64,000 nucleotides of DNA from Candidatus Daviesbacteria bacterium. GTDB lineage: Bacteria; Patescibacteriota; Microgenomatia; Daviesbacterales; UBA10151. The stretch's first letter is position 1; each line of letters begins with the position of its first letter. The notes under the pieces are model-generated. The model ran no database searches and was not told where the DNA came from. It saw only the letters and a program-made list of their open reading frames with translations. The stretch spans positions 67,590-131,589 of the forward strand of contig JACPDA010000005.1 in assembly GCA_016184225.1 (NCBI GenBank). The letters are read 5' to 3'. The position numbers and the translations under genes are program-made. Below are positions 2,026 to 63,294 of the stretch, piece by piece.

Positions 2026-2040
2026 CCCGCCTTTGGCGAG

Positions 2041-2066
2041 GTCATCCTGAGCGAAGTCGAAGGATC
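2041..2066. repeat. Family 1 copy, intergenic ybaB-recR
   Basis: gtcatcctgagcgaagtcgaaggatc. Confidence 0.7.
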
Positions 2067-2086
2067 TATGTTAAAATCCTCTCATC

Positions 2087-2683: not shown

Positions 2684-2701
2684 TTATGCTAGAATGTATC
2701 A

Positions 2702-4458: not shown

Positions 4459-4509
4459 TTGACTTTTTGCATCCTAAAAATATAGAATACTAAAACTGTC
4501 TCTAATAAT

Positions 4510-4845
4510 ATGGAAGTGATACCAGTAGAAACACCTCAAACAACAGATTTAGAGTGGAGATATTGGGCAGAGGGTAGTAATCTTGCTTCGGCAGTTGCAT
4601 GGCAAACTATTATGAATTTAAATAAAGGGTATGCAACACCTGGTTTCCTCTCAGCAGCTTTAAACGGTTCGGATGGGGAGAAAATTGCACAAGCCGTAAT
4701 GCAAGAATACATCTTAAATCAATTTATACTTCCGTCTTCAGGGTCAGTAGATCTAGATAATCCACGAGTTGCCTTGGCACTAAAAGTACGGGATTTTGCA
4801 GCTGCGCAATTTAGAGCAGGAATGCTTGAACTATTACAAAACTAA
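4510..4845 (+). CDS. Hypothetical protein (111 aa)
   Basis: ORF only. A TTGACT…TAGAAT promoter-like sequence lies upstream. No recognisable motif. Confidence 0.4.
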   Translation: MEVIPVETPQTTDLEWRYWAEGSNLASAVAWQTIMNLNKGYATPGFLSAALNGSDGEKIAQAVMQEYILNQFILPSSGSVDLDNPRVALALKVRDFAAAQFRAGMLELLQN

Positions 4846-11039: not shown

Positions 11040-13858
11040 TACAGAAGATAAGAGTGCAAACAATTGGACAACCCAATATTAAAGTTTACCGGTTGGAAGG
11101 GATATCAGTAAAAGATGCTAAAATTCTGGCTGAAAAATTATTGTCAGAGCGAATTAATCAAAAATACACAATAAATCAGCCTATTGCCCGCGGCAAAGTT
11201 ATTGAAATCGCCTATAAACCTGGTGTGATGAATCCGGAGGTGGTATCGATAACCAAAGCTGCATCTGATTTGGGGATTAAACTTATTTCCTGCGACAGTT
11301 CCATTGAATACCTCAGTCAAAAAGTTTCCTTTAATCCTTTAACAGAACACATAATTACAGAAGAACCAAAAACTCTGATTTTAAAAGCTAAACCCGGAAA
11401 GACACAAATTATTTCTATAAGAAATTTGACTGACCAGCAGTTGTTGGATTTATCCAAAGATACGCTTTTCCTTAATTTGGAAGAGATGAAAAAAGTCCAG
11501 AAGTATTTCCAAAAAATAAAAAGAGATCCGTCAGATTTGGAGCTTGAGACTTTAGCCCAAACTTGGAGTGAGCATTCCGGCCATAAAACTTTTAAAGCGG
11601 ATTTAATAATAGACGGTAAGGAAAAAGAACCCCTGATGACTCGGCTGAAAAAGGAAGCCTTAAAACATGATAAAAATATTGTTTCTGCCTTTGTTGATAA
11701 TTCCGGTGTGATGGATTTTTACGACGGTTTTGGGATTTGCGGTAAAGTAGAAACTCATAATGCCCCTTCAGCAATCGAACCTTACGGCGGGGCCATGACT
11801 GGTTCAGGCGGAGTATTCCGGGATATTGCTGCTACTGGTAAAGGCGCAAAAAACATTGCCTCAACAGATGTCTTTTGTTTTGCTCCATTGGATTTATCAG
11901 CTAATGAATTGCCCATGGGGTGTTTGCCGCCTGAATATTTACTAAAAAGGGTTGTGGCCGGTGTCAGGGATTATGGTAATAGGATGGGAATTCCCACTAA
12001 TAATGGCTCAGTTCATTTTCACAAAGATTTCCGGGCCAAGCCTTCGGTGATTGTAGGGGCCTTTGGAATTGTTCCCAAAAAATATGCCAAAAAGGAAAAG
12101 CCAAAAGTGGAAGATCTGATAATTACAATCGGCGGCAGAACAGGTAGGGATGGAATTCATGGGGCTACATTTTCTTCCGGAGAAATGACTGAGAAAACAA
12201 TTGAAGTGCATTCTTCCGCAGTCCAAATTGGCAATGCTATTGAAGAAAAAAGGATGTTTGATGCGCTATTGGAGGCGCGTGATCAGGATTTAATAAGGTT
12301 GGTGCAGGATTGCGGCGGAGGAGGATTTTCCTCAGCAATTGGGGAAATAGGTGAGGAGTTGGGGGTCTTGATTGACCTTAAAAATGCTCCTTTAAAATAT
12401 CAGGGTTTAGCTCCTTGGGAAATTTGGATGTCAGAGTCACAAGAGCGGATGATTGTGGTTTTAGAAAAAATAAACCTGAAGAAATTTGAGGATATTTGTA
12501 AAAAGTACAATGTGGAATTTGCAGTTTTGGGAAAGTTTGATGGAAGTAAGAAATTGAATGTGACTTTTGAAGGTAAAGTAGCTGGTGATTTAGACATGCA
12601 ATTTCTTCATCATGGGTTACCAAAAAGGATTCTAATAGCAAAAAAATCAAATCGTCATTCTGGGGAGCAAAGCGACTCCAGAATCAAAAAAGGATCCTGG
12701 ACAAGCCAGGATGACAGAGTGGAACAGCCTAAGACTGAAAGAGAATGGATAAAGGTTTTAGAAAAAGTGCTAGCTCATGGAAATGTTAATTCCAAAGAAC
12801 CAATTGTTAGATTGTATGATCATTCAGTTCAAGGGACAAATGATCTGCAGTCTTATTCGGGAACTAATTTAGATGGGCCAAATGATTCACCGGTTCTCCG
12901 CCCTTTTCTTGATAAGAAGTATGGCATGGTAATTTCCCATGGATTAAATCCTGTCTTAAATAATATAGATCCGTATTGGGGGAGCATCTGGGCGGCAACA
13001 GAAGCACTCTCCAATTTTGTAGCAGTCGGAGGGAATTACAAAGAAGCTTGCTTAATTAATAATTATATTTGGCCATTTCCGGATGAGCAGTCTCTTTGGT
13101 CTTTAGATAGGTCGGTTGATGCGGTTGTAGATTTTATGAAAACTTTCAAGATTCCTGTAATTTCTGGGAAAGACAGTTTGTCCTCGTCTTACAGAAGCAA
13201 AGATGGAAAAGTAATTAAAATCCCACCTGTACTTTGTATCTCCGTTTTGGGAAAAATTCCTGATGCCGGAAAAACTGTTACTGCAGATTTTAAACGCAGT
13301 GGTTCAACAATTGTTTTAGTAGGTAAAATGGATAAGAATCTTGGAGGCTCTGTTTATTATCAAGTACTTTACCCTGAGCGAGCGGAGCAAGTCGAAGGGC
13401 CAAAAGTTGATTTGAAGATTTTGCCAAAGACTTTTGATGCAATTTGCAAAGGGATACAGACTGGTAAGATTCTATCTTCCCATGATGTTTCGGAAGGTGG
13501 CGTAATTGGGGCTATTTTTGAAATGTGTGTAGGCGGAGGAATGGGAGCGACCATTCACCTCGGAGGAGTAACTTCGTCACACCTCCGAGGTGACCGAATG
13601 GGCTCCTCGGAGGTGGAATTCTTGTTTAATGAAACAGCAGGGTGTTTTATTGTGGAGGTGGAAAATGAAAGTATGGCAAAACAACTTTTTAAGAATGTGC
13701 CATTTAGGATTTTAGGTAAAACAAAAGAAGGAAATAAAATGGAAATATATGGAAATAAGACAAGCTTGCCGCTTCGCGATAAAAAGAAATTATTTGTTGT
13801 GGATGTAAATGATTTGAAGAAAGTTTGGCAGGAACCAATGAGGAGGTTATTCCCATGA
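11036..13858 (+). CDS. purL: FGAM synthase synthetase subunit PurL with a PurS-like N-terminal domain
   Basis: The AIRS-like PurL core (HSGHKTFKA…NAPSAIEPYGGAMTG) is preceded by about 170 aa resembling the PurS / large-PurL N-terminus (YKPGVMNPEVVSITKAASDLGI). It contains an in-frame repeat-element insert (RHSGEQSDSRIKKGSWTSQDD). Confidence 0.85.
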   Translation: MIQKIRVQTIGQPNIKVYRLEGISVKDAKILAEKLLSERINQKYTINQPIARGKVIEIAYKPGVMNPEVVSITKAASDLGIKLISCDSSIEYLSQKVSFNPLTEHIITEEPKTLILKAKPGKTQIISIRNLTDQQLLDLSKDTLFLNLEEMKKVQKYFQKIKRDPSDLELETLAQTWSEHSGHKTFKADLIIDGKEKEPLMTRLKKEALKHDKNIVSAFVDNSGVMDFYDGFGICGKVETHNAPSAIEPYGGAMTGSGGVFRDIAATGKGAKNIASTDVFCFAPLDLSANELPMGCLPPEYLLKRVVAGVRDYGNRMGIPTNNGSVHFHKDFRAKPSVIVGAFGIVPKKYAKKEKPKVEDLIITIGGRTGRDGIHGATFSSGEMTEKTIEVHSSAVQIGNAIEEKRMFDALLEARDQDLIRLVQDCGGGGFSSAIGEIGEELGVLIDLKNAPLKYQGLAPWEIWMSESQERMIVVLEKINLKKFEDICKKYNVEFAVLGKFDGSKKLNVTFEGKVAGDLDMQFLHHGLPKRILIAKKSNRHSGEQSDSRIKKGSWTSQDDRVEQPKTEREWIKVLEKVLAHGNVNSKEPIVRLYDHSVQGTNDLQSYSGTNLDGPNDSPVLRPFLDKKYGMVISHGLNPVLNNIDPYWGSIWAATEALSNFVAVGGNYKEACLINNYIWPFPDEQSLWSLDRSVDAVVDFMKTFKIPVISGKDSLSSSYRSKDGKVIKIPPVLCISVLGKIPDAGKTVTADFKRSGSTIVLVGKMDKNLGGSVYYQVLYPERAEQVEGPKVDLKILPKTFDAICKGIQTGKILSSHDVSEGGVIGAIFEMCVGGGMGATIHLGGVTSSHLRGDRMGSSEVEFLFNETAGCFIVEVENESMAKQLFKNVPFRILGKTKEGNKMEIYGNKTSLPLRDKKKLFVVDVNDLKKVWQEPMRRLFP
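12654..12715. repeat. Dispersed palindromic repeat family 2 (GTCATTCTGG…GACTCCAGAATC…GATYCTGGACAAGCCAGRATGAC), in-frame in purL
   Basis: gtcattctggggagcaaagcgactccagaatcaaaaaaggatcctggacaagccaggatgac. Confidence 0.75.
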
Positions 13859-16781: not shown

Positions 16782-18164
<1,383 letters not shown>

Positions 18165-21802: not shown

Positions 21803-23214
21803 TGAAAGTGCAAAGTGCAAAGTGCAAAGTGCAAAGTTATGATAGTTACCAATCACCATTTTCTTGGAGATATGGATCAGAAAAAATGAGAGAGATATTC
21901 TCAGAAGAGAAGAAATATAAACTTTGGAGAAAGATTTGGGTAGCTCTTGCAAAAGCACAAGCAAAAGAAGGTTTGGTATCAAAAGAAGAACTGGCAGACC
22001 TGGAAAAAAATCAAGACAACATAGATATCGAACGGATTTGGGAAATTGAAAAAGATACCTGGCATGACACCGTAGCGGCAATAAAAGAATTTGCTGAGAA
22101 AGCCAAAATCGGCGGCGGCAAAATACACCTCGGTGCCACTTCCATGGATATTTCCGATAATGCTGAAACTATTAGGATTAGGGAAGCCTTGGATATAGTT
22201 GAAAAAAGACTCGTAGCTTTGCTACTCGCGCTTTCTTCGAAAGTAAAAAAATATGCTAACTTTCCCTGTATGGGGTATACCCATCTGCAGCCGGCAGAAC
22301 CAACAACCTTAGGATATAGATTTGCTTTCTACGCCCAGGATCTTTTAATGGATCTGGAACTTTTAAGATTTGTTAAGAAGAATTTAAAGAGTAAAGGTTT
22401 AAAGGGCGCAGTCGGAACATCAGCCAGTTATGTTAAATTGTTGGATAGGAAAAAAGCAGAAGAGATGGAAGTTAGGATTTTAAGGGAGTTAGGGGTAGAA
22501 GCATTTGAAATTACCAATCAAACTGCGTCCAGAAAGATAGAATTTTGGGTAGCCAGCTTACTCGCGGGAGTTGCACAGTCCTTGAATAAATTTGCCTTTG
22601 ATTTAAGGATTATGCAGTCACCCGGGTTTGGTGAATGGCAGGAGCCGTTTGGAGTTTTGCAGGTTGGTTCATCCGCAATGCCTTTTAAGAAAAATCCTAT
22701 TAAAGCAGAACAAATTTGTTCTTTGTCCAGGCTGGTGGTGAATTTATCAAAGACTGCCTGGGATAATGCTTCCATGATGTTACTTGAGCGGACTCTGGAT
22801 GATTCGGCTAACAGAAGAGTAGTAATTCCGGAAATGTTTTTGGCAATTGATGAAATGCTAAATTCTACCGCAAATATTGTTGAAGGATTAATTGTAAATG
22901 ACAAACAAATAATGAGAAATTTGGAAAAATATTGGCCTTTTTCTGCAACAGAAGGAATTATTCTGGAAGCAGTAAAACAGGGGGCAGACAGACAAAAAAT
23001 GCATGAGGCGCTCAGAGAAATTGCCATGAGAGCGTGGAAGTCTATCCAAGAAGGGAATCCAAATCCAATACAGGATTTATTAGAAGAAAATTCCACTATT
23101 AAACAGTACTTAAAACCAATAGAAATAATAGAAGTTCTGGATGCAAAAAATCATGTTGGTAATGCAAAAGAAAAAGCTTTGACTTTGGCGGATCAAATTG
23201 ATAGATTGACATAA
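21802..23214 (+). CDS. purB: Adenylosuccinate lyase
   Basis: Fumarate-lyase family with a PurB N-terminus (SWRYGSEKMREIF). The first codons are a heptanucleotide tandem repeat (MKVQSAKCKVQS). Confidence 0.85.
   Translation: MKVQSAKCKVQSYDSYQSPFSWRYGSEKMREIFSEEKKYKLWRKIWVALAKAQAKEGLVSKEELADLEKNQDNIDIERIWEIEKDTWHDTVAAIKEFAEKAKIGGGKIHLGATSMDISDNAETIRIREALDIVEKRLVALLLALSSKVKKYANFPCMGYTHLQPAEPTTLGYRFAFYAQDLLMDLELLRFVKKNLKSKGLKGAVGTSASYVKLLDRKKAEEMEVRILRELGVEAFEITNQTASRKIEFWVASLLAGVAQSLNKFAFDLRIMQSPGFGEWQEPFGVLQVGSSAMPFKKNPIKAEQICSLSRLVVNLSKTAWDNASMMLLERTLDDSANRRVVIPEMFLAIDEMLNSTANIVEGLIVNDKQIMRNLEKYWPFSATEGIILEAVKQGADRQKMHEALREIAMRAWKSIQEGNPNPIQDLLEENSTIKQYLKPIEIIEVLDAKNHVGNAKEKALTLADQIDRLT
21804..21838 (+). 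repeat. Heptanucleotide tandem repeat (CAAAGTG x about 5) within the first codons of purB
   Basis: gaaagtgcaaagtgcaaagtgcaaagtgcaaagtt. Confidence 0.8.
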
Positions 23215-24955: not shown

Positions 24956-25456
24956 ATGATAAAGAAAAATTCATTAAGTTATTTTTTGCTTCTTGGTTTG
25001 GAGAAATCGATTCAGAGTGGCGTTTTGCTAATTGATTTTGCCTACAATTCCCACTGGTATGTTTATCCCGGGCGAGACCCAAGAGATATAAATTACGGCG
25101 CTCTTTATCAGGCAGTTAGGGATTTGCGTGAGAAAGGCTTTATTGAAACCGAAAAAGACGGCAGAAAAATTATGTTGAAATTAACAGATAAAGGTAGGGA
25201 AGAGGCAATAGTAAAAAAGCTCTTAGCAGAAGAGAAATGGGATAGGAAGTGGAGAATTGTTATTTTCGATGTTCCGGAAAAGCACCGGAAATTAAGAAAA
25301 ATCTTGCGGAGTAAACTTAGGGAGTGGGAATTTGAGCCTTGGCAGAAAAGTGTTTGGGCAGGTAAAAAGGATGTAACAAGTCCATTGCGAAATTTTATTA
25401 AAGAGGTTGGTTTATCTGATTGGGTAAGGGTGGTAGTCGGTGCTGATGTAGCTTAG
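24956..25456 (+). CDS. Short PaaX-family-like transcriptional regulator (wHTH plus WDGKW-motif domain)
   Basis: Matches the PaaX N-terminus/middle region (…KWDRKWRIVIFDVPEKHRKLRKILRSKL…QKSVWAG). Paralog of 59013..59507. Confidence 0.6.
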   Translation: MIKKNSLSYFLLLGLEKSIQSGVLLIDFAYNSHWYVYPGRDPRDINYGALYQAVRDLREKGFIETEKDGRKIMLKLTDKGREEAIVKKLLAEEKWDRKWRIVIFDVPEKHRKLRKILRSKLREWEFEPWQKSVWAGKKDVTSPLRNFIKEVGLSDWVRVVVGADVA

Positions 25457-26374: not shown

Positions 26375-27352
26375 ATGGCAACGACTAATGGTTTTGTACT
26401 TTTAACAGGGACTGCTAATTTAAAACTTGCCAAAGATATTGCTAAAGTTTTGGGAAAAGATGCTGATGAAACCGTGAGCGTTTTTGCTGACGGCGAAAAG
26501 AGAATTGTTATCCCCGAGAATTTAAGGAAAAGAGATGTTTTTATAATCCAACCCACTTGTCCGCCGGTTGATGCAAACATTATGGAACTGCTTTTGATAA
26601 TAGACGCTGCAAAAAGATCATCCGCCTCAGAAGTAACAGCCATAATTCCTTATTTTGGATACTCCAGGCAGGACCGCAAAGATCGACCGCGAGTTCCCAT
26701 ATCAGCGTCTTTGGTTGCCAGGTTAATTGAATTTTCCGGGGCAGACAGAATTTTGACGGTTGATATCCACTCGGAGCAAGAGCCCGGATTTGTGGAAATC
26801 CCTTGGGATAATTTATACAGCAGTTACTCTTTTCTTCCCCAGCTAAAAAAATATTTCGGATCAAACTTAATTGTTGCCTCGCCTGATAAAGGCGGAGTTT
26901 TAAAAGCTGCATTTTATGCGGATCTGCTTGACGCTGATGGAGTGGCGATTGTTTTTAAGGAAAGGGATGTGATGAAAAAGAATGAAAGCAAGGCTTTGGA
27001 TATGATTGGTGACGTTAAGGGCAAAGACGTATTAATTGTGGATGATATGATTGATACGGCCGGAACGATTTGTGAAGCTGCTAAATTGATTAAGGGAAAA
27101 GGGGCAAAAAGCGTATCTGCTGCTGCTGCTCATGGGCTTTTTTCCGACCCTGCCATAGAACGGATTAACGACTCACCCCTAGATAAGATTTTTATCACAG
27201 ATACAGTGCCGCTTAGGAAGGAAGTTTTGGAGAGCCAAAAGTTTATTGTAATATCAGTGGCTAACCTTTTGGCAGAAGCTATAAACTGTATTCACAATGG
27301 TGATTCAATTTCTGAAAAATTAATCCCCAAAACTCACGAAGAAAGAAACTAG
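26375..27352 (+). CDS. prs: Ribose-phosphate pyrophosphokinase
   Basis: PRPP-binding motif (VLIVDDMIDTAGT) and the Prs N-domain. Confidence 0.9.
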   Translation: MATTNGFVLLTGTANLKLAKDIAKVLGKDADETVSVFADGEKRIVIPENLRKRDVFIIQPTCPPVDANIMELLLIIDAAKRSSASEVTAIIPYFGYSRQDRKDRPRVPISASLVARLIEFSGADRILTVDIHSEQEPGFVEIPWDNLYSSYSFLPQLKKYFGSNLIVASPDKGGVLKAAFYADLLDADGVAIVFKERDVMKKNESKALDMIGDVKGKDVLIVDDMIDTAGTICEAAKLIKGKGAKSVSAAAAHGLFSDPAIERINDSPLDKIFITDTVPLRKEVLESQKFIVISVANLLAEAINCIHNGDSISEKLIPKTHEERN

Positions 27353-27372
27353 CCCTTCGACTACGCTCAGGG
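27353..27372. repeat. Family 1 variant core between convergent prs and purM
   Basis: cccttcgactacgctcaggg. Confidence 0.55.
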
Positions 27373-38977: not shown

Positions 38978-40378
38978 ATGAAACTTAAGAATTTCATTTT
39001 TCTTATTGCAACATTCATATCATTTTTGATAGGGGCCCAGGTATCTCCGGCAGTTTTTGGTGCAACGCCCACACAGTATGGCTTTACATTTCCAGTTGGC
39101 GAGCTGAATAACTGTGCAACTGTGGCAGAATGCGGAAATTACTGTGAGAAAGACGGTAATCTTCCGGCGTGCATGGCATTTGTGAAAAAGTACAAAATTA
39201 CCAAAGATGATGTATTAACATTCACTATTGATGAACTGGGTAATTGTCAGATGGGTTCTGATTGCCGCAATTTTTGCAACCGTGACGAAAATATTACCAA
39301 ATGCATTGATTTTGCCGATAAATATGACCTGCTTTCTACCAGCAATCTTGAACTGGCGCAGAAATTTGCCAAAGCAGTTGGTTCCGGAGGTGGGCCGGGG
39401 GGCTGCAGGAGCCTTGAGCAGTGTGACCGCTATTGTGACATAAGTGAACATACCAACGAATGTCTTGACTATGTGGGCAAGAAGGATTTATTACCACGTA
39501 ATGAATTGGCACAAGTTCGCAAAGTGGCAGAGGGTTTTAGACAGGGAATAGAAACCCCGGGTAAGTGTCGTGATTACACGGAGTGCAATGTTTATTGTAC
39601 TGATTCTAGCCACTCTAACGAGTGCGGAGTTTATGCTGTAAAGGTTGGTTTTATCACAACCGAGGAGGCAGAACAGGCCAAAAAATATGGCGGAACCGGT
39701 CCTGGAGGTTGTAAATCAGAGCAAGAATGTAGCGCTTTTTGTCAACAGCCATATAATCAGAGAGTCTGCTTAAGTTATGCAAACGAACATAATATAAAAG
39801 TAGATTTTAAAGGACCCGGCGGTTGTAGTGATATTTCATCCTGCACATCTTACTGTACTAAAAGTAAGTCTGATCCAGAGTGTCAAAAGTACGCTAGTCA
39901 ATACCAAGGATTTAAAGGGCCTGGCGGGTGTGAGGATGAAGCCTCCTGCAAAACTTATTGTCAGGCTAATCCTGCTGATGCGGAATGTAAACAATATGCC
40001 GGTCAATATGGCGGATTTTCCGGACCTGGAGGGTGTAGTGATGTAGGATCTTGTACTGCCTATTGTAAAGATCACTATCAAGATCAAGAATGTCAAAAAT
40101 ACTCAAGCCAGTATGGTGGAGGATTTTCCGGGCCTGGCGGGTGTAATTCAGAAAGCTCATGTAAAGCTTACTGCACTGCCAACTCTGGGGATGCAGCCTG
40201 TAAACAATATGCCGGTCAATATGGCGGATTTTCCGGACCTGGTGGGTGTACGGATGAGGCTTCTTGTACCTCTTACTGTAAGTCAAACCCCAAAGATTCA
40301 GCTTGTGCCCCATATGTTGGCCAGTATAAAGATCAATACCAACAGCAAAATCAGCAACAACAACCTCAACCACAATAG
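38978..40378 (+). CDS. Secreted cysteine-rich tandem-module protein (about 10 modules of GPGGC-x5-C-x3-C-x8-C…QYGGF, Q-rich tail)
   Basis: Signal peptide; about 30-aa modules with 4 Cys each repeated head-to-tail, ending QQQNQQQQPQPQ. Confidence 0.6.
   Translation: MKLKNFIFLIATFISFLIGAQVSPAVFGATPTQYGFTFPVGELNNCATVAECGNYCEKDGNLPACMAFVKKYKITKDDVLTFTIDELGNCQMGSDCRNFCNRDENITKCIDFADKYDLLSTSNLELAQKFAKAVGSGGGPGGCRSLEQCDRYCDISEHTNECLDYVGKKDLLPRNELAQVRKVAEGFRQGIETPGKCRDYTECNVYCTDSSHSNECGVYAVKVGFITTEEAEQAKKYGGTGPGGCKSEQECSAFCQQPYNQRVCLSYANEHNIKVDFKGPGGCSDISSCTSYCTKSKSDPECQKYASQYQGFKGPGGCEDEASCKTYCQANPADAECKQYAGQYGGFSGPGGCSDVGSCTAYCKDHYQDQECQKYSSQYGGGFSGPGGCNSESSCKAYCTANSGDAACKQYAGQYGGFSGPGGCTDEASCTSYCKSNPKDSACAPYVGQYKDQYQQQNQQQQPQPQ
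39380..40335 (+). repeat. Tandem roughly 90-bp coding repeats inside the Cys-rich protein gene
   Basis: Recurrent ggacctggnggntg…caatatggcggattttccgg blocks seen directly. Confidence 0.6.
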
Positions 40379-42734: not shown

Positions 42735-43016
42735 ATGAATTCATATTATTTAACTTTAGTTTTAAGACCTGATTTGGAAGAAAAAGAGAGAAAGGTACTC
42801 CTAGATTCCATTAGCAAAAAGGTCAGTGGAACTGAAGGCAAGATTGAAAAGGAAGACCTTTGGGGGGTACGTACTTTAACCTATCCAATTAAGAGAAATA
42901 CCTCGGGTTACTTTGCCCACTTTGAAATCTCCGGCGATCCAAAGAATGTAAAAGGTCTTGACAAAAGTTTGAAAGTAGAAGAAGATATCTTACGTTATCT
43001 TCTAATTCGAAAATAG
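42735..43016 (+). CDS. rpsF: 30S ribosomal protein S6
   Basis: 93 aa with S6-like sequence and the S6-ssb-S18 gene order. Confidence 0.85.
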   Translation: MNSYYLTLVLRPDLEEKERKVLLDSISKKVSGTEGKIEKEDLWGVRTLTYPIKRNTSGYFAHFEISGDPKNVKGLDKSLKVEEDILRYLLIRK

Positions 43017-43020
43017 AAAA

Positions 43021-43581
43021 ATGGCCTCAAGATCTTGGAATAGAGTAGAACTAATAGGTAATTTAACCAGGGACCCGGAACTTCGATATACCCCTAATGG
43101 TGCTGCTGTTTGTACTTTTGGCATGGCCACCAACCGCACTTATGTGACTGAGGGCGAGAGAAAAGAAGAAGCAGATTTTCACAGATTAGTGGCCTGGAAT
43201 AAACTGGCTGAACTTTGTAATCAACTTTTGAAAAAGGGCAACCGGGTTTTTGTTTCCGGAAGGCTGCAGACCCGGTCCTGGGAAGGCCAAGATGGTCAAA
43301 CCAGAAACGTTACGGAGATTGTGATAGAGGATATGATTTTGCTGACTCCTAAAAGTAACGGAGATTATACACCGGTACCGGAAGATGTGGGGGTAGAGCC
43401 GGTTAAAGTAAAAGAGTCGAAGGAGTCAGAGGAGCCGGAAGAATCAAAGGCAGAGAAAAAGACAGAAATTCAAAAAGAAGAGCCTAAAGAAAAAGAAGAA
43501 CCAAAGACAGAATCCTTCGACTCCGCTCAGGACAAGAAAGCCGCCCCCAAAGAAGAAGTAGAGGATGATCTTCCATTCTAA
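43021..43581 (+). CDS. ssb: Single-stranded DNA-binding protein
   Basis: OB fold (VELIGNLTRDPELRYTPNGAAV) and an acidic tail ending DDLPF. The tail includes a dispersed-repeat core (ESFDSAQDK). Confidence 0.9.
   Translation: MASRSWNRVELIGNLTRDPELRYTPNGAAVCTFGMATNRTYVTEGERKEEADFHRLVAWNKLAELCNQLLKKGNRVFVSGRLQTRSWEGQDGQTRNVTEIVIEDMILLTPKSNGDYTPVPEDVGVEPVKVKESKESEEPEESKAEKKTEIQKEEPKEKEEPKTESFDSAQDKKAAPKEEVEDDLPF
43514..43533. repeat. Family 1 core in-frame in the ssb C-terminal tail
   Basis: tccttcgactccgctcagga, translated SFDSAQD. Confidence 0.6.
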
Positions 43582-43705
43582 TTTTTTGGACTAATTCGGT
43601 ATGTGCCTTGGACTGTTATAGAGAACATCTGCCGAATTGTCCACTACGACCTTAATCCCGCAATCTATTGATGTAAAAGAGAATTTAATATATAATCTTA
43701 CGATT

Positions 43706-44014
43706 ATGGCCGAGAAAAAAATCACCAGAAAAGTAATATCCAAAGCTCCTTCGGAAGAAGTAGCAAAGGAAGAGGCAATAAATGTATCAAAGACAGAGGA
43801 GGCAGGCAGGCCTAAAAGGGTTTGCTTTTTTTGTAATGGCAAAACAAGTCCTTCTTATACAGACATCAATACTCTGCGCCGTTTTACAACAGATAGAGCT
43901 AAGATTGTAGCCCGGGCAAAAAGTAATCTTTGTAGCAGTCACCAGCGGGCGGTTACAAGACAGATCAAATATGCCCGCCATCTGGCCCTGCTTCCTTTTG
44001 TACCCAAGGTTTAG
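43706..44014 (+). CDS. rpsR: 30S ribosomal protein S18
   Basis: S18 core (FCNGKTSPSYTDINTLRRFTTDRAKI); start moved to MAEKK. Confidence 0.85.
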   Translation: MAEKKITRKVISKAPSEEVAKEEAINVSKTEEAGRPKRVCFFCNGKTSPSYTDINTLRRFTTDRAKIVARAKSNLCSSHQRAVTRQIKYARHLALLPFVPKV

Positions 44015-44017
44015 TAC

Positions 44018-44097
44018 TATAGAATAGTGACTAGTCGCTAGAGTCTAGAGTCAAGTAATTATTTTCTAGACTCTAGATTCTAGACACTTGACTCTAA
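44018..44097. repeat. Intergenic repeat family 4 (ATAGTGACTAG…GAGTCAAG…TCTAGACTCTAGA…ACTCTA), copy A after rpsR
   Basis: About 80 bp, partly palindromic and rich in tctaga/gagtc. Confidence 0.6.
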
Positions 44098-48552: not shown

Positions 48553-49279
48553 TAATAAGTACCCTTTGTTTTTTGGCAAGGTCGGTTTTGACCTCTACTT
48601 TTGCTTGGGGAAAATATTTTTGGGCTTCATTTGCTGCCAGTTCTCCGTGGGTATAGTCAATTTCTCCGATAATCAATTTAGGTTTCCAACCTACACTCCA
48701 GGAGTGTAAGTTCGAATTCACTCCTGGAGTGGAAAGCTGTTTGATCTGTTGGAAAAGTTTCCGGTAAAGTTCAAAGCCATCTTCTCCGCCGTCCAAGGCA
48801 ACATGTGGTTCAAAGTCTTTGACTGAAGAGTCTAAATAAGGAATCCTGGCAGAAGGGATGTAAGGTAAGTTAGTGACAATGACTAGGTTACAGGTTTCAG
48901 GGTACAGGTTACAGTTTAACCCGGAAAGCAAATTACTTTTTAAAAAAGTGATTTTATCTTCAACTCCATGGAGTTTGGCATTTTGTCTGGCTACTTTTAA
49001 AGCTTTCTGGGAAATATCTGAAGCAATAATAGTTACGTTTACACCCTTGGGGTGGAGGCTTAGGTTTTTGGCAATGGAAATGGCAATGTTGCCGGAGCCG
49101 GTGCCAAGGTCTAAAATGAGGTTACAGGTTTCAGGGTACAGGTTACAATAATTTAAAACTTCATCTACTAAAAGTTCTGTTTCCGGGCGGGGGATTAGAA
49201 CATCAGGAGTGACTTTGAAACGTAATTTGTAAAATTCAACCCAACCTTTAATGTACCCAGAGGGCTTTGATGATGTCAT
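48530..49279 (-). CDS. prmC: Release-factor glutamine N5-methyltransferase
   Basis: SAM motif (LDLGTGSG) and an NPPY-type motif (TNLPY). Carries two in-frame copies of a 29-bp repeat ([10 protein letters not shown]). Confidence 0.8.
48886..48914. repeat. Repeat family 3 (GGTTACAGGTTTCAGGGTACAGGTTACAG), in-frame in prmC
   Basis: Translated on the minus strand as [10 protein letters not shown]. Confidence 0.7.
49120..49147. repeat. Family 3 second copy, in-frame in prmC
   Basis: ggttacaggtttcagggtacaggttaca, translated [10 protein letters not shown]. Confidence 0.7.
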
Positions 49280-51625: not shown

Positions 51626-51631
51626 ATTGAG

Positions 51632-52045
51632 TTAAGAGTTACGAGTTAAGAGTGCAGAATTATTTCTGGATTTCTTCAGAATCGTAACCAGTATTCTTAT
51701 TATTTCATCATTTTCCTTTAAAAGTAAACCTAACTTCTTAGAGGGAATTAGTTGTGATCGGGAAAGAATCGTTAACCAATAATAGGTTTCCCTTGCTTCT
51801 TTTAAGGAGATGTTGACTAAGTGTATAAAATCTTTTCTGGAGGCAGCACTTTGAGCTTCTTGTAAGTTTGCTCCAATAGATGTTCCGGACCTTACTACTT
51901 GTGATGCTAAAGCATAACCAGCAGGAGTTTTCGGTAAGGAGTTAACCATGTAAACAATTCTTACTGCAAATTCTATGGATCTTTCTGCGATTCCAATTCT
52001 TAACTCTTCACTCTGCACTCTGAATTCTCCTGATGGCTTCGTCAA
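51632..52045 (-). CDS. Four-helix-bundle protein (23S rRNA intervening-sequence protein family)
   Basis: Family-typical sequence (…SIGANLQEAQSAASRKDFIHLVNISLKEARETYYWL…). The N-terminal region overlaps the hisS 3' end by about 37 nt. Confidence 0.65.
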   Translation of the reverse strand: MTKPSGEFRVQSEELRIGIAERSIEFAVRIVYMVNSLPKTPAGYALASQVVRSGTSIGANLQEAQSAASRKDFIHLVNISLKEARETYYWLTILSRSQLIPSKKLGLLLKENDEIIRILVTILKKSRNNSALLTRNS

Positions 52046-55443: not shown

Positions 55444-56169
55444 TTATTTTTTCTTTCCAGTGGGAGTGGCAGACTGGGTGGCTACCTTTTTGGGTTTTAT
55501 TATTCCGCCTTGAGGTATCACATAAACAAATCCAGCTTCGAAAATTTCATTCTTATTTTTGCTTCCCGTGAGTATCACAAAATCTTTTAACTTTACCGTC
55601 GCTGAGGTGGGCAAACTGACGGCTACATTTTGGAAGTTTTTATCCTTGAGGGTAATTAGCTCGTCAGAGATAGAGATTACCTGGCCCCAAAAGTAAGTTT
55701 TTGGTTCTAAGTTAGGAGTTGGCAGTAAGATAATTTTTTTAGCTGTCAGTACGCCTGTTTCGTCAATATCGCCCAAAGCCGCAATATAGTCATCTTCCGC
55801 AATTGCCTTCAGAGAGAATTTAGTTTTTCCTTTAATTTTGCTTTCAAAAACAGTATCCTGATTGATGCTGATTATTTTGGGTCCGGATGCGGCTGCTAAA
55901 GTTAGGGAAGTTTCCGAACTTGCTTTAACCATGCCTGTGTAAGCTTTATCTTTCAGTTTGTGGTTAACCTCTTGTTTTAATTTAGCGGCCTTTGAAGCAA
56001 TTTCCTTTTTTAGTTCCTCCAGTTTGGCCTTAATGTCGGCAGAAGGGGTGGAATCAGCAGCATAGGTAGGGTATAGGGTATAGGGTATAGGGTATAGGAA
56101 AACAAAAAATACAAAAAATAAGGCAATTATTTTACTAGTGGCTAACCCCCAAACCCTAAACCCTCTCAT
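55444..56169 (-). CDS. Hypothetical secreted/anchored protein (241 aa)
   Basis: N-terminal hydrophobic segment. The N-terminal codons include a heptanucleotide tandem repeat (YPIPYTLYPTY). Confidence 0.4.
   Translation of the reverse strand: MRGFRVWGLATSKIIALFFVFFVFLYPIPYTLYPTYAADSTPSADIKAKLEELKKEIASKAAKLKQEVNHKLKDKAYTGMVKASSETSLTLAAASGPKIISINQDTVFESKIKGKTKFSLKAIAEDDYIAALGDIDETGVLTAKKIILLPTPNLEPKTYFWGQVISISDELITLKDKNFQNVAVSLPTSATVKLKDFVILTGSKNKNEIFEAGFVYVIPQGGIIKPKKVATQSATPTGKKK
56063..56098. repeat. Heptanucleotide tandem repeat (GGGTATA x about 4.5) inside the N-terminal coding region of ORF 55444..56169
   Basis: taggtagggtatagggtatagggtatagggtatagg. Confidence 0.8.
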
Positions 56170-56676: not shown

Positions 56677-57333
56677 ATGGATATATATTGGTACGGACAA
56701 GCATGTTTTAAATTAAAAGGCAAAAATGCGACTGTCGTCATCGATCCATTTGACCCTGATTTTACCGGTCTTAAACTTCCCAAGGATTTGCAATCTGATG
56801 CAGTTTTAACAACCCATGGCCACCGCGACCACAACTTTGTATCGGGTACCACTACATCCTCAGGTGCTAAACCCCCGGTTTTTGATAAACCAGGGGAATA
56901 TGAAGTTTCCGGGGTAGTCATGACCGGGATAAATTCTTTCCATGACAACTCCCAGGGTACAGAGCGGGGGACGAACACTATTTTCCATTTACTTTTTGAT
57001 AATTTGGATATTATTCATTTGGGGGATTTAGGACAAAGCAAATTAACTGAAGAGCAGGTTGCCCAAATTGGCCAGACGGATATTCTGCTGGTTCCTGTAG
57101 GGTCTATCTATACAATAGACTCTAAGGCTGCCTCGGAAATAGTTTCACAGCTTGAACCGAAAATTATCATCCCGATGCATTACAGGATAGATGGGTTAAA
57201 GTTTGAACTTGAAGGGGTTGAGAGCTTCTTAAAAGAAATGGGAGCAGAAGGGGTGGTTCCGGTGCCAAAGCTGTCAATTACTAAGGAAAAACTGCCGGAG
57301 GAACTGCAGGTAGTGGTATTAGGTAAGAGTTAG
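56677..57333 (+). CDS. Metallo-beta-lactamase-fold hydrolase
   Basis: HxHxDH motif (THGHRDH). Confidence 0.7.
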   Translation: MDIYWYGQACFKLKGKNATVVIDPFDPDFTGLKLPKDLQSDAVLTTHGHRDHNFVSGTTTSSGAKPPVFDKPGEYEVSGVVMTGINSFHDNSQGTERGTNTIFHLLFDNLDIIHLGDLGQSKLTEEQVAQIGQTDILLVPVGSIYTIDSKAASEIVSQLEPKIIIPMHYRIDGLKFELEGVESFLKEMGAEGVVPVPKLSITKEKLPEELQVVVLGKS

Positions 57334-57376
57334 TTTTCGGTTTTCTGTTTTCGGTTTTCAGATTCTGGTTTTTCAG
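57334..57376. repeat. Heptanucleotide tandem repeats (GTTTTCN x about 6) that form the left arm of a long imperfect inverted repeat upstream of dnaB
   Basis: ttttcggttttctgttttcggttttcagattctggtttttcag; right arm ccgaaaactggcaaac…ccgaaaactgacc. Confidence 0.7.
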
Positions 57377-58902: not shown

Positions 58903-58974
58903 AATAAAAGTACTTGAGGTATTATATCAAGTTTAACTTGATGAAAAAAGGATAAAGAGGAAATTAAAGTCTGT

Positions 58975-59004
58975 ACAAATGTCCTCCGATCGTGGTACAT
59001 TTGT
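58975..59004. promoter_or_regulatory. Palindrome ACAAATGT-CCTCCGATCGTGGT-ACATTTGT overlapping the promoter (TGtGATAAT) of PaaX-like gene 2
   Basis: 8-bp arms around a CGATCG core; the ATG follows within about 9 nt. Confidence 0.5.
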
Positions 59005-59012
59005 GATAATAT

Positions 59013-59507
59013 ATGGCACGACCACCAAGCAAGCGAAAGGTTCTAACAGATTTAGTTCTTTTAGCTTTAGAGAAATCAATTGACGGGTATGTAGCGTTTG
59101 AAGATTTCATTTACAATCCACTGCTAGAAAGACCTGTTAAAAAATCAGTCCTTTCTCAGGTTATAAAAAGACTTCGGGATCAAGGTTTAGTGGAGTTTAT
59201 TAGTGATAATGAGTTAATTTTAAGATTGACTGATTCTGGTAGAGATAAAGCGCTATGGAAGAAGATGGCTCTCGGAGATGAGAAATGGGATGGGAAATGG
59301 CGGCTGGTAATATGGGATGTGCCGGAAAAAAGGAGATTGGCTAGGGATTTACTAAGGTTTAAACTTAAACAGTTAGGTTTTAAACAGTGGCAAAAAAGTG
59401 TTTGGGCTTCAAAGATAAACTGTACTAAGTTATTACGAGATTTTATCAAGCAAGTAGGAATAGAGGATTGGGTGATGGTGATTGAATCCGATAACGTAGG
59501 AGTTTAA
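59013..59507 (+). CDS. Short PaaX-family-like transcriptional regulator (paralog of 24956..25456)
   Basis: KWDGKWRLVIWDVPEKRRLARDLL…QKSVWASK; N-terminal wHTH. Confidence 0.6.
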   Translation: MARPPSKRKVLTDLVLLALEKSIDGYVAFEDFIYNPLLERPVKKSVLSQVIKRLRDQGLVEFISDNELILRLTDSGRDKALWKKMALGDEKWDGKWRLVIWDVPEKRRLARDLLRFKLKQLGFKQWQKSVWASKINCTKLLRDFIKQVGIEDWVMVIESDNVGV

Positions 59508-59508
59508 A

Positions 59509-59538
59509 CATTTGTCCTCCGATCGTGGTACAAATGTG
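59509..59538. promoter_or_regulatory. Near-identical palindrome ACATTTGT-CCTCCGATCGTGGT-ACAAATGT immediately downstream of PaaX-like gene 2
   Basis: Same 14-nt core in direct orientation with the arms swapped. Confidence 0.5.
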
Positions 59539-59590
59539 ACAAACAATGCAATCTAGACTTTTTTAACCGATTTATGTATAAGTTACTTCT

Positions 59591-62263
59591 ATGAATAAAT
59601 CTACAAAAAATGAAGTCAGGCTTCCGGTGCATGTTAAGCCTGAGCGGTACAGGATTATGCTCCGGCCGGATCTGGAGGGGTTTACATTTTACGGCGAAGA
59701 AACAATTTTTTTGGTTTTAGAAAAGCCCACCAAACAAATTACCCTGCATGCTGCTGAGCTGGAGATAGAATCGGCAGAATTTATACATGGTAACAAAGAG
59801 GTATGGGCTGGGAGGATTAATTATGATAAAAAAGCGGAAACTGCTACATTTACTTTTGCTAAAAATATTCAAAAAGGCAAAGGACAATTAAAGCTTGCTT
59901 TTAAGGGAATCTTGAATGATAAAATGCGGGGCTTTTACCGTTCCCGCTATGAAGTGAGTGGAGTATCAAAGCATCTGGCTACTACCCAGTTTGAATCAAC
60001 TGATGCCAGGAGGGCTTTTCCCAGCTTTGATGAACCCGCTCAAAAGGCTGTTTTCGATGTGACTTTAGTGGTTCCTGCCAAGACTGTGGCTATCTCCAAC
60101 ACCATTGAATCTAACATCCGAGAACATGAAAGCGGTTACAAGGTAATAGAGTTTGCCCCAACCCCGAAAATGTCTACTTATCTTTTAGCCTTTATTGTGG
60201 GGGAGTTTGAGAGTGTAGAAGTGCAAAGTGCAAAGGGCAAAGTGATAAGGGTTTTTACCACACCGGGTAAAAAAGAACAAGCCAGATTTGCCCTTGATGT
60301 AGCCGGAAAATGCTTGGATTTCTATGAACAATACTTTGGTATCTCTTACCCTTTGCCGGTGTTGGATCTTATTGCAATACCTGATTTTGCTGCCGGGGCC
60401 ATGGAAAACTGGGGAGCAGTGACATATCGCGAATCTTTGCTGTTAATTGATGAGGAGGCTTCCTCCACTGCCAATAAACAATGGGTGGCTTTAGTGATTG
60501 CCCATGAGCTGGCTCACCAGTGGTTTGGCAATTTAGTCACTATGGAGTGGTGGACCCACCTTTGGTTAAATGAAGGTTTTGCCTCATTTATTGAATTCTT
60601 GGCTATTGACCATATTTTCCCGGAGTGGGATATCTGGACCCAATTTGTAGGGAGCGAAATGGGTGAAGCTTTCTCGCTGGACGGCTTAAAAAACACCCAC
60701 CCGATTGAGGTGGAGGTGGGCCATCCGGCCGAGATTTCCGAGATTTTTGATAAGGTCAGCTATTCCAAAGGAGCCTCAATTCTGCGTATGCTTATGTCTT
60801 ATCTGGGGGAAAAAGATTTTCAAAAAGGGTTGCAATTTTATCTTAAAAAACATGCTTATGGAAATGCGGAGACCCAGGATTTGTGGAAAGCATTGGAAGA
60901 AGTTTCCGGGAAACCTGTTGGCAAGCTGATGAAAAACTGGACCTCAAAGCCCGGACATCCGGTGATAAGGTTACAGTCAACAGGCAGCAGGCTACAGTTA
61001 ACACAAAGCAGGTTTTTCTCCTCTCCAATTTCTAAAAGAAAGACGAAAGATGGTGCTGTCTGGAGTATTCCTATCACTGTCATTCTGGGGAGTTCTGCAA
61101 GGCAGAACGACTCCAGAATCGATTCTGGACAAGCCAGAATGACTAATCTATTAATGAATAAAAAATCCATGACTATTTCAGGAATTAAAGATAACGAGTG
61201 GATTAAATTAAATGCCGGGGAGGCGTCATTAGTTAGAGTTGATTATCCGCAGGAATATCTCAAGAAGCTGGAAGAGGCGGTTAAGAATGGAAAACTGCCT
61301 GCAGTGGACAGGTTGGGCCTAATCAGAGATTCTTTCTCTTTGGCAGAGTCAGGTCAAAGCCCAACCACTTTATCTTTGGAGCTGACTCAAAGTTACATGG
61401 GTGAAGAAGATTATACTGTTTGGGCTGAGCTGACGGGAAAACTGCTGCAGCTTGATTCTCTTTTAGCTCTGGAACCATTTTATCCGGATTTCAAAAAATA
61501 CGGCATAAAGATTTATCAAGATATAGGGGGTAAGCTAGGCTGGAAAGCAAGAAAAGGAGAAAAGCATACAGATTCCCTGCTGCGGGGTATGGTTTTAAAT
61601 ATGCTGGGAGGGTTTGGAGATGGGGAGACTATAAAGGTGGCTCAGGAATTATTTAGAGCTTATGTAGTACGTCATTCTGGGGAGCGCAGCGACTCCAGAA
61701 TCAAAGGGGGGGATTCTGGACAAGCCAGAATGACAAGTAGTCACGGCATTCATCCTGATTTAAAGGGAGTTGTTTACAATTTGGTGGCGGAAAACGGTGG
61801 AAAAAAAGAATTCGATACTTTGATGAAGATGTACAAGCAAGAGGAAAATCAACAGGAAAAAGATCGGATTGGCCGGGCTTTGGGGAAGTTTAAAATTAAA
61901 GCCCTTCTTTCTAAAACCCTGGATTTTTCTATTTCCAAGCATGTGAGATTCCAAAACAGTCTGCAAATTATTGCAGCTGTTTGGGCTAATCCGGTCGGCC
62001 GTTATCTGGCCTGGGAGTTTGTAAAAAAGAATTGGAAATTGTTAAAAGATAGGTATGCAGGGGGCCATTATTTTACCAAAGTTTTTGGACCGGCCGGAAG
62101 CTTTACCAAAAAAGTTGATGCCAAAGATATTGAATCCTTTGTCAAGAAAAATCCTGTCCCGGAAGCCAAAAGAACCATTGCCCAAGCCTTGGAACAGATT
62201 TATTCCAATGCAGAGTGGCTAAAAAGGGATAGACAGAAAATCAAAGATTTTCTGTTAAGATAA
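59591..62263 (+). CDS. pepN: Aminopeptidase N (M1 family)
   Basis: GAMEN and HELAHQW…E zinc motifs. Carries two in-frame palindromic repeat inserts (SSARQNDSRIDSGQARMT; RHSGERSDSRIKGGDSGQARMTS). Confidence 0.9.
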   Translation: MNKSTKNEVRLPVHVKPERYRIMLRPDLEGFTFYGEETIFLVLEKPTKQITLHAAELEIESAEFIHGNKEVWAGRINYDKKAETATFTFAKNIQKGKGQLKLAFKGILNDKMRGFYRSRYEVSGVSKHLATTQFESTDARRAFPSFDEPAQKAVFDVTLVVPAKTVAISNTIESNIREHESGYKVIEFAPTPKMSTYLLAFIVGEFESVEVQSAKGKVIRVFTTPGKKEQARFALDVAGKCLDFYEQYFGISYPLPVLDLIAIPDFAAGAMENWGAVTYRESLLLIDEEASSTANKQWVALVIAHELAHQWFGNLVTMEWWTHLWLNEGFASFIEFLAIDHIFPEWDIWTQFVGSEMGEAFSLDGLKNTHPIEVEVGHPAEISEIFDKVSYSKGASILRMLMSYLGEKDFQKGLQFYLKKHAYGNAETQDLWKALEEVSGKPVGKLMKNWTSKPGHPVIRLQSTGSRLQLTQSRFFSSPISKRKTKDGAVWSIPITVILGSSARQNDSRIDSGQARMTNLLMNKKSMTISGIKDNEWIKLNAGEASLVRVDYPQEYLKKLEEAVKNGKLPAVDRLGLIRDSFSLAESGQSPTTLSLELTQSYMGEEDYTVWAELTGKLLQLDSLLALEPFYPDFKKYGIKIYQDIGGKLGWKARKGEKHTDSLLRGMVLNMLGGFGDGETIKVAQELFRAYVVRHSGERSDSRIKGGDSGQARMTSSHGIHPDLKGVVYNLVAENGGKKEFDTLMKMYKQEENQQEKDRIGRALGKFKIKALLSKTLDFSISKHVRFQNSLQIIAAVWANPVGRYLAWEFVKKNWKLLKDRYAGGHYFTKVFGPAGSFTKKVDAKDIESFVKKNPVPEAKRTIAQALEQIYSNAEWLKRDRQKIKDFLLR
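61079..61143. repeat. Family 2 copy, in-frame in pepN (variant left arm)
   Basis: gtcattctggggagttctgcaaggcagaacgactccagaatcgattctggacaagccagaatgac. Confidence 0.75.
61671..61734. repeat. Family 2 copy, in-frame in pepN (near-perfect palindrome)
   Basis: gtcattctggggagcgcagcgactccagaatcaaagggggggattctggacaagccagaatgac. Confidence 0.8.
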
Positions 62264-63154: not shown

Positions 63155-63243
63155 ATTAACCTAATTACTAATTGACCTAATTTCTAAATAATGTCTAATG
63201 ACTTAATAACCAAATTTTAGACATTAGATCATTGGTGCTTGTT

Positions 63244-63271
63244 TAGAAATTAGAAATTAAAAATTAGAAAT
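63244..63271. repeat. Heptanucleotide tandem repeat (TAGAAAT x 4) in the galU promoter region
   Basis: tagaaattagaaattaaaaattagaaat, followed by an extended -10 TGtTATACT and then the ATG. Confidence 0.7.
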
Positions 63272-63294
63272 TCTGCTCATGTTATACTTACACT

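Follow-up and report, generated by a model that had tools for sequence, protein, structure and literature searches.

A copy of a dispersed REP-type hairpin, probably a harmless insertion, in the ssb gene of a Candidatus Daviesbacteria bacterium

Introduction

How does a sequence that recurs between and within other genes come to lie in the reading frame of an essential DNA-binding protein? The question is raised by ssb, the gene for the single-stranded DNA-binding protein (SSB), in a 64,000-nucleotide (nt) stretch of contig JACPDA010000005.1 from a Candidatus Daviesbacteria bacterium, a member of the Patescibacteria within the Candidate Phyla Radiation (CPR). This whole 64-kb stretch is referred to here as the window, and coordinates are positions within it unless another contig is named. 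Towards its 3' end, ssb carries a 20-mer, TCCTTCGACTCCGCTCAGGA, of which close copies are found elsewhere in the window. A first-pass annotation, made from the letters alone, had taken this 20-mer for the core of a repeat family, placed in reverse orientation and inserted in frame into a disordered linker. The analysis described here indicates that the block surrounding it (43513–43536) is very probably a copy of a dispersed hairpin of the repetitive extragenic palindromic (REP) type, inserted in this lineage and most likely carried since as a neutral or nearly neutral passenger; the insert is probably selfish DNA in an essential gene, and harmless. Intragenic insertion of this kind is already known from Rickettsia and other bacteria, and what is new is the host gene and the phylum.

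Results and discussion

The ssb gene and its additional segment

The ssb open reading frame (ORF; 43021–43581, + strand, 186 amino acids) is flanked by rpsF (42735–43016) and rpsR, and its product matches PF00436 and is 100% identical to a protein of Candidatus Daviesbacteria that NCBI names single-stranded DNA-binding protein. The product has the architecture of bacterial SSBs, with an N-terminal oligonucleotide-binding (OB) fold at approximately residues 1–112, a Glu/Lys/Pro-rich linker at approximately residues 112–181 (27% Glu, 19% Lys and 10% Pro) and a conserved acidic tip, DDLPF, at residues 182–186 (nt 43564–43578). Across 30 aligned homologues L184, P185 and F186 of the tip are invariant and D182 and D183 occur in at least 90%. 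Solved SSB structures match residues 1–115 only, and the residue composition of the linker suggests that it is disordered. The linker would also be a permissive site for additional sequence, judging from its low-complexity composition, the variable length of SSB among homologues (153–197 amino acids) and what is generally known of SSB linkers.

The 20-mer occurs exactly and only once, at 43513–43532 (+). The first-pass annotation had correctly placed the core in ssb, though its coordinates (43514–43533) were off by one. The 20-mer is read in frame as E164-S-F-D-S-A-Q-D-K172, 10–22 residues N-terminal of DDLPF in a C-terminal region that runs ...EKEEPKTESFDSAQDKKAAPKEEVEDDLPF*; translation and composition thus agree with the earlier claim that the core encodes part of ESFDSAQDK in a Glu/Lys/Pro-rich linker ahead of the tip. 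The REP-derived block as a whole spans 24 nt (43513–43536, − strand; TCCTTCGACTCCGCTCAGGACAAG on the + strand), encodes SFDSAQDK (residues 165–172) and sits 42 nt 5' of the ssb stop codon. On the − strand it reads cTTGTC-CT-GAGCGGAGTCGA-AGGAT, in which a TGTC tag is followed by a shortened 5' arm, the conserved core with its GGA apex and a 3' arm. As the tag-first strand of the element is the − strand, the proposed reverse orientation is borne out. Directly upstream of the insert, Tandem Repeats Finder detected an 18-nt tandem duplication (KEEPKE/KEEPK; 43472–43507, +), indicating that the linker also changes by small local indels or duplication.

Comparison with orthologues identifies the segment as an addition to the window protein. 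When the window SSB and its 29 best homologues (69–87% identity to the window protein) are aligned with MAFFT, the segment TESFDSA is present in the window protein only, while the protein sequences on its flanks, EKEEPK and K(A/T)APKEEVEDDLPF, align on either side. FDSAQ or a similar repeat-derived peptide was found in 0 of the 119 other listed SSB homologues. At the DNA level, alignment with the orthologous loci of two relatives (L001 and L003) resolves the window gene into CCAAAGACAGAA-TCCTTCGACTCCGCTCAGGACAAG-AAAGCCGCCCCCAAAGAAGAAG. The L003 orthologue reads CCAAAAACAGAA-AAGCCCGCCCCCAAAGAAGAAG with no bases between (junction ...ACAGAA|AAGCCCGCCCCC...), and the L001 orthologue has three bases (GAA) at the site of the block. 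The difference thus amounts to 24 nt against L003 and 21 nt against L001, with flanks conserved on both sides and with block ends that are ambiguous by 1–3 nt because these flanks are A-rich. Both the gap unique to the window protein and the clean 24-nt block relative to L003 uphold the claim of an in-frame insertion.

Membership of the inserted sequence in a repeat family is supported by three lines of evidence. First, four matches to the 20-mer with three or fewer mismatches were observed in the window, compared to 0.00 expected from 100 dinucleotide-preserving shuffles. Besides the ssb site itself, these are at 2045–2064 and 17018–17037 (one mismatch, or 19/20 identity, each) and at 27353–27372 (three mismatches), with further variant copies, a fifth at 1714–1744 (11-nt core) and a sixth at 13371–13400 (expanded apex). 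Second, an nhmmer profile hidden Markov model (HMM) trained on the four other window copies, with the ssb site excluded, matched 43512–43533 (−) with E=5e-6 and 22.3 bits as its top non-training match, with all unrelated positions at E>2. The core is therefore part of the family-1 HMM, whereas its absence from such a model is what the first-pass annotation had named as evidence to the contrary. Third, a covariance model trained solely on genomes of other phyla, whose E-value calibration is rough, matched the ssb site at model positions 8–27 with one mismatch (17.0 bits, E ~0.065, rank 6 in the window). In addition, the exact ssb 21-mer is present in at least 14 metagenome contigs among the matches listed.

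These data also bear on the possibility that no real insertion took place, and that the segment instead resembles the repeat by chance, was ancestral and lost from every relative, or results from misassembly at a repeat. Such explanations draw on the low complexity of the linker, which makes it hard to align, and on the origin of the window from a metagenome-assembled genome (MAG). They are opposed by the shuffle expectation and the HMM score given above, by the missing motif in 119 of 119 other homologues and by the clean alignment of the DNA flanks. Moreover, four sequencing runs independently yielded the identical SSB protein, including the insert, in addition to the NCBI record, which makes an assembly error very unlikely. 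A gain in this lineage is also far more parsimonious than many losses, because the relatives are without the block and the block matches a dispersed repeat. That the insertion is real can thus be taken as practically certain.

Structure and distribution of the repeat

The family has the consensus (T/C)GTC-AT-NNN-GAGCGNAG(T)CGA-N'N'N'-AT and can be described as a REP-type mini-hairpin with a TGTC or CGTC tag. The unpaired tag is followed by a stem that opens with A and T and continues with three covarying pairs, and this stem encloses the core GAGC-G-N-A-G-(T)-CGA. A scan of species-representative genomes for GTCAT-NNN-GAGCGAAGTCGA recovered at least 120 loci, and a metagenome scan for the ssb form with a free apex centre, GTCCTGAGCGNAGTCGAAGGA, recovered at least 120 contigs with GC contents of 0.31–0.72. 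Overall, the repeat core was found in at least 240 contigs from many phyla, with the genome matches listed including Bacteroidota, Verrucomicrobiota, Acidobacteriota, Ignavibacteria, Patescibacteria, Firmicutes, Planctomycetota, Chloroflexota, Myxococcota, Gammaproteobacteria and Gemmatimonadota.

Pairing in the outer stem is evident from covariation. The free triplet is perfectly complementary to the triplet after the 12-nt core in 113 of the 134 matches listed, with at least 12 different triplets used and with A-T following. In the hairpin alignments, 94–95% of cells are paired and 146–170 double changes occur versus 43–49 in shuffles (0 of 500 shuffles reach the observed value), and sliding the partner column abolishes the signal. 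The base preceding GTC is T in 84 and C in 32 of 133 units among the genome matches listed, and T in 75 and C in 36 of 122 among the metagenome matches listed; the tag of the ssb copy is TTGTC on the − strand (43533–43537). The stem start is A-U in 99 of 128 and U-A in 121 of 128 units, and the ssb copy has AGGAT on its 3' arm and no AT beside the tag (GTC-CT). Of 134 units, 41 have ATCTC as the next five bases beyond the complementary triplet and 23 have ATCCC; the ssb copy continues with TCTG.

Within the core, the window copies that deviate are those in ssb (GGA) and at 27353 (GTA), both at the apex centre. This position is also occupied by A (70), T (23), C (15) and G (14) in the metagenome matches listed for GTCCTGAGCGNAGTCGAAGGA, and it varies (GGA, GCA) among model-found copies in the scanned loci, where the core T can also drop to give GAGCGAAGCGA and longer hairpins can take the place of the apex between GAGC and GTCGA. 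The inner pair G14-C21 shows a compensatory change to C-G (GACC...GTGG) in three alignment rows, which represent two distinct sequences. We infer a hairpin in which five covarying pairs are followed by G.A, A.G, G-C and C-G with a bulged T and a G-N-A triloop; counting these four inner pairs, it would comprise a 9-pair stack, a 3-nt apex and one bulge, with five covarying Watson–Crick pairs. Nearest-neighbour folding predicts the outer stem only, and not the inner pairs of the 12-nt core form. A stable hairpin in the ssb copy was likewise considered and set aside, as energy-based folding gives it no support, and no structural activity is therefore claimed for this copy.

Units in reading frames are not confined to the window, as 19 of 256 units elsewhere fall in frames that stay open over 100 codons or more to either side. 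Judged by eye from translations, the in-frame hosts there (L038, L099, L231, L132, L018 and L191) appear to be housekeeping genes of other phyla, namely Flagellimonas purL, a methionyl-tRNA synthetase, a class I aminoacyl-tRNA synthetase (SFDSAQDE), a P-type ATPase, a chorismate synthase and a SNF2-type helicase (SFDSAQDR). Inverted dimers were seen in a second family of the window (family 2) and in other phyla. In the high-GC metagenome contigs L135, L141, L176 and L208, the core was observed at the apex of a far longer palindrome with locus-specific outer arms (e.g. ccctctcccaa...ttgggagagg).

Relation to described repeats

Among described repeats, the CGTC-tagged REP superfamily of Di Nocera, De Gregorio and Rocco (2013, BMC Genomics 14:522; PMC3733652) comes nearest. 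These elements have an unpaired CGTC tag, often TGTC or CCTC, a stem of 8–9 Watson–Crick base pairs that almost always opens with A/T, a loop of 4–5 nt and a short unpaired tail with the consensus CCA, and they frequently form inverted dimers (PMC3733652). They lie mostly just 3' of genes, some supplying the stop codon, while others are intragenic and translated, with an excess in replication and repair genes noted by the authors; they have been reported from five phyla, mostly alpha-proteobacteria, and include the Rickettsia palindromic elements (RPEs) RPE-4 and RPE-6 as CGTC-4 and CGTC-1, respectively (PMC3733652). No dedicated transposase is known for the class, and none is flanked by its units (PMC3733652). 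The present family shares the tag, the A-T stem start, the inverted dimers, the near-gene-end and intragenic habit and, as far as a crude motif screen shows, the lack of a unit-flanked transposase. In contrast, it has five Watson–Crick pairs plus a 12-nt conserved core, a tail of C(T/C)C instead of CCA and a far wider phylum range. Those supplementary files of the 2013 paper that are in text form contain neither the core strings GAGCGAAG and CTTCGCTC nor SSB as a host. A search for follow-up literature on the class found only that paper, which a 2018 survey of HUH endonucleases cites without adding to the class, and a search on the core strings, the encoded peptides and palindromic in-frame inserts in CPR bacteria found no relevant paper in the library searched.

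Like the RPEs, the present repeats are short palindromic sequences that lie in frame in the ORFs of a small genome and are translated at tolerated sites, here in ssb, purA, pepN and purL. RPEs were reportedly described by Ogata et al. in 2000, and the classic RPE-1 is approximately 100–150 bp long and adds 30–50 residues. The ssb insert, unlike RPE-1, comprises 24 nt and eight residues and its host belongs to the Patescibacteria/CPR, and any link to RPE-4 and RPE-6 is made through their description as CGTC-tagged REPs (PMC3733652).

A further comparison is with the GTAG REPs and REPINs, the sole REP class for which a mobilising enzyme has been shown, namely REP-associated tyrosine transposases (RAYTs) of the Y1/HUH type that recognise the hairpin in single-stranded DNA. 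Both groups consist of small hairpins with an unpaired conserved tag, form inverted doublets able to fold into a long hairpin and cluster near gene 3' ends. The present family differs in its (T/C)GTC tag and in having no RAYT flanked by units, the genes found between inverted units being of other kinds. In addition, GTAG REPs are largely specific to a species or genus, whereas the present 21-nt core is identical across phyla at GC contents of 0.31–0.72. Nor does the insert resemble a miniature inverted-repeat transposable element, a class marked by the terminal inverted repeats of a parent insertion sequence, a target-site duplication and lengths of roughly 50–500 bp; it is 24 nt long and shows no discernible duplication at its junctions, and no parent element was found.

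The core itself recalls the G-N-A mini-hairpins of the d(GCGAAGC) type, reportedly described as very stable DNA by Hirao and co-workers in the 1990s. The 11-nt core GAGCGAAGCGA contains GCGAAGC exactly and the apex centre is the position that varies freely in the family, as for a G-N-A triloop, although the comparison is between a physical-chemistry motif and a repeat family. A described RNA family was rejected as the identity of the repeat, as only a tRNA passes an Rfam 15 scan of the window at gathering thresholds. A permissive Rfam scan of eight loci with paired units gave sub-threshold matches to long hairpins only (such as AaHKsRNA41 and miRNA precursors). Hammerhead-, tRNA- and signal recognition particle-like origins of the core were also discarded, as it shows no fit to their consensus motifs, Rfam being the only tool applied.

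Other repeat units in the window

The window holds at least nine repeat loci, of which three overlap a stop codon or sit 0–13 nt from one and six lie inside four genes. The hosts and neighbours confirmed with Pfam are folD (884–1726), ybaB, recR, prs (26375–27352), a purM-like gene, purL, pepN (family M1) and purA. The fullest copy is a complete family-1 unit, GGTCATCCTGAGCGAAGTCGAAGGATCT, at 2038–2069 (+), in the intergenic region between ybaB and recR and 13 nt past the ybaB stop (covariance model 45.4 bits, E=1.8e-8). A family-1 unit with the 11-nt core GAGCGAAGCGA lies at the 3' end of folD (1714–1744, +; 36.4 bits), and the last two or three codons of this gene and its TGA stop come from the unit; GTAG REPs have been reported to supply stop codons likewise. 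The third extragenic copy, a family-1 unit with a GTA apex (27353–27372, −; 13.1 bits), is located between the convergent prs and purM-like genes (stop at 27352 and end at 27375, respectively) and begins immediately after the prs stop.

Among the intragenic copies, purA (16782–18116, −) contains a composite unit, CGTCATTGCGAGGAGTCCTGAGCGAAGTCGAAGGATGACG, at 17013–17052 (−; 27.1 bits), which encodes a 15-residue peptide, corresponds to a 13-residue gap versus PDB 3hid and has a 'GTC-CT' junction identical to that of the ssb copy. In purL, a family-2 inverted dimer at 12651–12718 (+), made up of units at 12651–12688 (+) and 12690–12718 (−), encodes RHSGEQSDSRIKKGSWTSQDD and corresponds to 15-residue gaps versus PDB 3viu. 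A probable family-1 unit with an expanded apex, CCCTGAGCGAGCGGAGCAAGTCGAAGGG, follows in the same gene at 13371–13400 (+; YPERAEQVEGP), detected by the HMM (E=0.0047) and by the covariance model, with no clear length gap versus the same solved Thermus homologue. Two family-2 inverted dimers are present in pepN, one at 61076–61146 (+; SSARQNDSRIDSGQARMT) with a 9-residue gap and another at 61668–61737 (+; RHSGERSDSRIKGGDSGQARMT) with 22 gapped residues, both versus PDB 8sw0. The parallel that had been drawn between ssb and purA, purL and pepN is thus supported by gaps at repeat-encoded peptides relative to solved structures. The cross-phylum covariance model also matches the family-2 units 12690–12718 and 61709–61737 at approximately 18 bits each and, as it picks up a shared tag, stem frame and tail, both window families are considered one superfamily of tagged hairpins. 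A weak match of the model at 8609–8641 (...DIVIPIPDSAIPAA...) was treated as chance, its translation being a putative conserved motif of amidophosphoribosyltransferase (purF).

The positions and orientations of these units are relevant to whether the insert is functional, either by altering linker behaviour (cooperativity, partner binding or condensation) or as a DNA or RNA element that affects the expression of ssb or rpsR. A function of this kind would accord with the placement of REPs mostly near gene 3' ends and their intragenic excess in replication and repair genes (PMC3733652), with the three extragenic units of the window at or near stop codons and with the short distance of 42 nt between the ssb copy and its own stop codon. 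However, the insert is present in only one of 120 SSB homologues, its local hairpin is weak and the other window hosts are purine-synthesis enzymes and a peptidase, with no replication genes among them. Orientation within genes is not conserved either, as the mRNA strand is the complement of the GAGCG...CGA strand in ssb and the GAGCG...CGA strand itself in purA, which argues against a shared RNA-level role inside genes. A functional insert is therefore highly improbable.

Entry of the unit into ssb

The explanation we favour is that a unit would have entered the 3' part of ssb after the split from the nearest sequenced relatives. By analogy with the action of RAYTs on GTAG REPs, our best guess for the route is that a trans-acting enzyme recognised the hairpin in single-stranded DNA. 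The unit is free of stop codons in four of six reading frames, one of which is used by the ssb copy. The copy would then have survived because its 24 nt are a multiple of three, read in a stop-free frame, and lie in a low-complexity linker that varies in length and duplicates locally, so that the OB fold and DDLPF would be left intact and eight residues (SFDSAQDK) be added where length and sequence appear poorly constrained. Persistence of the insert is most likely neutral or near-neutral.

Several observations weigh against this explanation. A target-site duplication is not readable at the ssb junctions in the DNA alignment to L001 and L003, because the flanks are A-rich, and the nearest insert-free relative is only ~80% identical in protein. 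The E-value from the cross-phylum covariance model is marginal (0.065, with rough calibration). The ssb copy is without the tag-side A-T start and has a Watson–Crick stem of only 4 bp, and when folded alone it is no more stable than shuffles (−0.9 kcal/mol, z=+0.7); it may thus be an inactive fragment. Finally, apart from one Y1-type gene, a crude motif search of the window and of 1.68 Mb of related loci found no transposase.

Some of these features would be expected if the block shared the same REP origin but arose as a templated patch, through template switching, break repair or gene conversion, with the in-frame outcome then selected. The unit is shortened to 24 nt and has no tag-side A-T start, no target-site duplication is visible, and the linker also changes by local duplication; moreover, no dedicated transposase accompanies the CGTC class (PMC3733652), and a screen of the window and related loci with crude motifs revealed none. 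However, the 'GTC-CT' sub-form (GTCCTGAGCGNAGTCGAAGGA), in which the tag is joined directly to CT, is shared by ssb, purA and at least 120 metagenome contigs, so the shortening predates the ssb insertion and is no sign of a partial copy. The units are also dispersed at many unrelated sites, like mobile DNA, and microhomology at the junctions is no longer than 2–3 nt. A templated patch is consequently regarded as unlikely, and insertion of a mobile REP-type unit is retained as the preferred explanation.

Candidates for a mobilising enzyme were sought within the window, where a crude motif screen found no ORF with HUH plus Y motifs, and in the related loci. The Y1/RAYT-like ORF noted above (L175, 2884–3921, −), which carries the motifs PNHCHLL and YIHLNP, has inverted repeats of its own, ACAGAAGGGCGTCCCT, and these terminal repeats bear no relation to the REP unit that lies on that contig at a distance of 2.5 kb. 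Two ORFs located between inverted units were rejected as dedicated transposases, that of L075 being an M20 peptidase and that of L068, judged by eye from its translation, a presumed group II intron reverse transcriptase. The latter ORF (3173–4549), from a gammaproteobacterial MAG, lies between units at 2698–2729 (+) and 4698–4729 (−), and the spacer of a REP dimer may thus have been the site of intron insertion.

Other features of the window

Downstream of ssb, the rpsR ORF as called mechanically spans 43637–44014 with a TTG start at 43637. The S18 protein of relatives has 103 residues, and an in-frame ATG at 43707 would give 102 residues; the true start probably lies downstream of 43637.

Arrays with a 7-nt period were observed at 21805–21837, 44065–44096, 48885–48918, 49119–49147, 51629–51653, 56067–56098, 57333–57359 and 63243–63272, with the motifs AAAGTGC, TCTAGAC, AGGTTAC, GAGTTAA, TAGGGTA, GTTTTCG and TTAGAAA in 3.6–4.9 copies each. 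As an overall impression, they seem to lie mostly between or at the ends of listed ORFs. The REP core often directly adjoins similar 7-nt-type arrays in metagenome contigs L195, L209, L219, L248, L215, L221 and L225.

A 42-nt palindrome-bearing repeat (GTACAAATG...CATTTGT) at 58968–59009 and 59501–59542 brackets an ORF (59013–59507) with a PaaX central Cas2-like domain, which has a paralogous ORF at 24956–25456. The two repeat copies could serve as operator sites or delimit a small cassette. A tandem repeat at 39983–40269 (period 108 nt, 2.7 copies, 64% matches) lies inside a 466-amino acid ORF (38978–40378) and indicates an internally repeated protein.

Conclusions

For ssb itself the insertion would be of little consequence, as the DNA-binding fold and the partner-binding tip are kept and eight residues are gained in a variable region. 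The wider finding is that tagged REP hairpins occur in a CPR bacterium and have entered coding sequence since its divergence from the nearest sequenced relatives, with at least six sites in four housekeeping genes hit within 64 kb. Such inserts mark sites where essential proteins tolerate an extra peptide, and they also carry a warning for annotation, as peptides such as DSGQARMT in predicted proteins derive from repeats. CGTC-tagged REPs are the REP class without known means of moving, and a lineage in which insertions are datable against close relatives is a practical place to seek the mechanism.

The more unusual result lies outside ssb, in a core of ~21 nt that is identical across phyla and dense in the housekeeping genes of a small CPR genome. 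It is possible, and we suggest it tentatively, that this core (GTCCTGAGCGNAGTCGAAGGA, or GTCAT-NNN-GAGCGAAGTCGA) represents an uncatalogued REP family with a centre of ~21 nt that is letter-identical across many phyla at GC contents of 0.31–0.72, in which only the outer stem covaries and with which no transposase is associated. If so, the family would suggest that such hairpins are made or moved in a very widely shared but unrecognised manner, or that they often pass from one phylum to another. In CPR genomes, which are small and leave little room between genes, the elements would then be forced into coding sequence. These genomes would thus naturally reveal where essential proteins tolerate insertions, and would be a good hunting ground for the missing enzyme.

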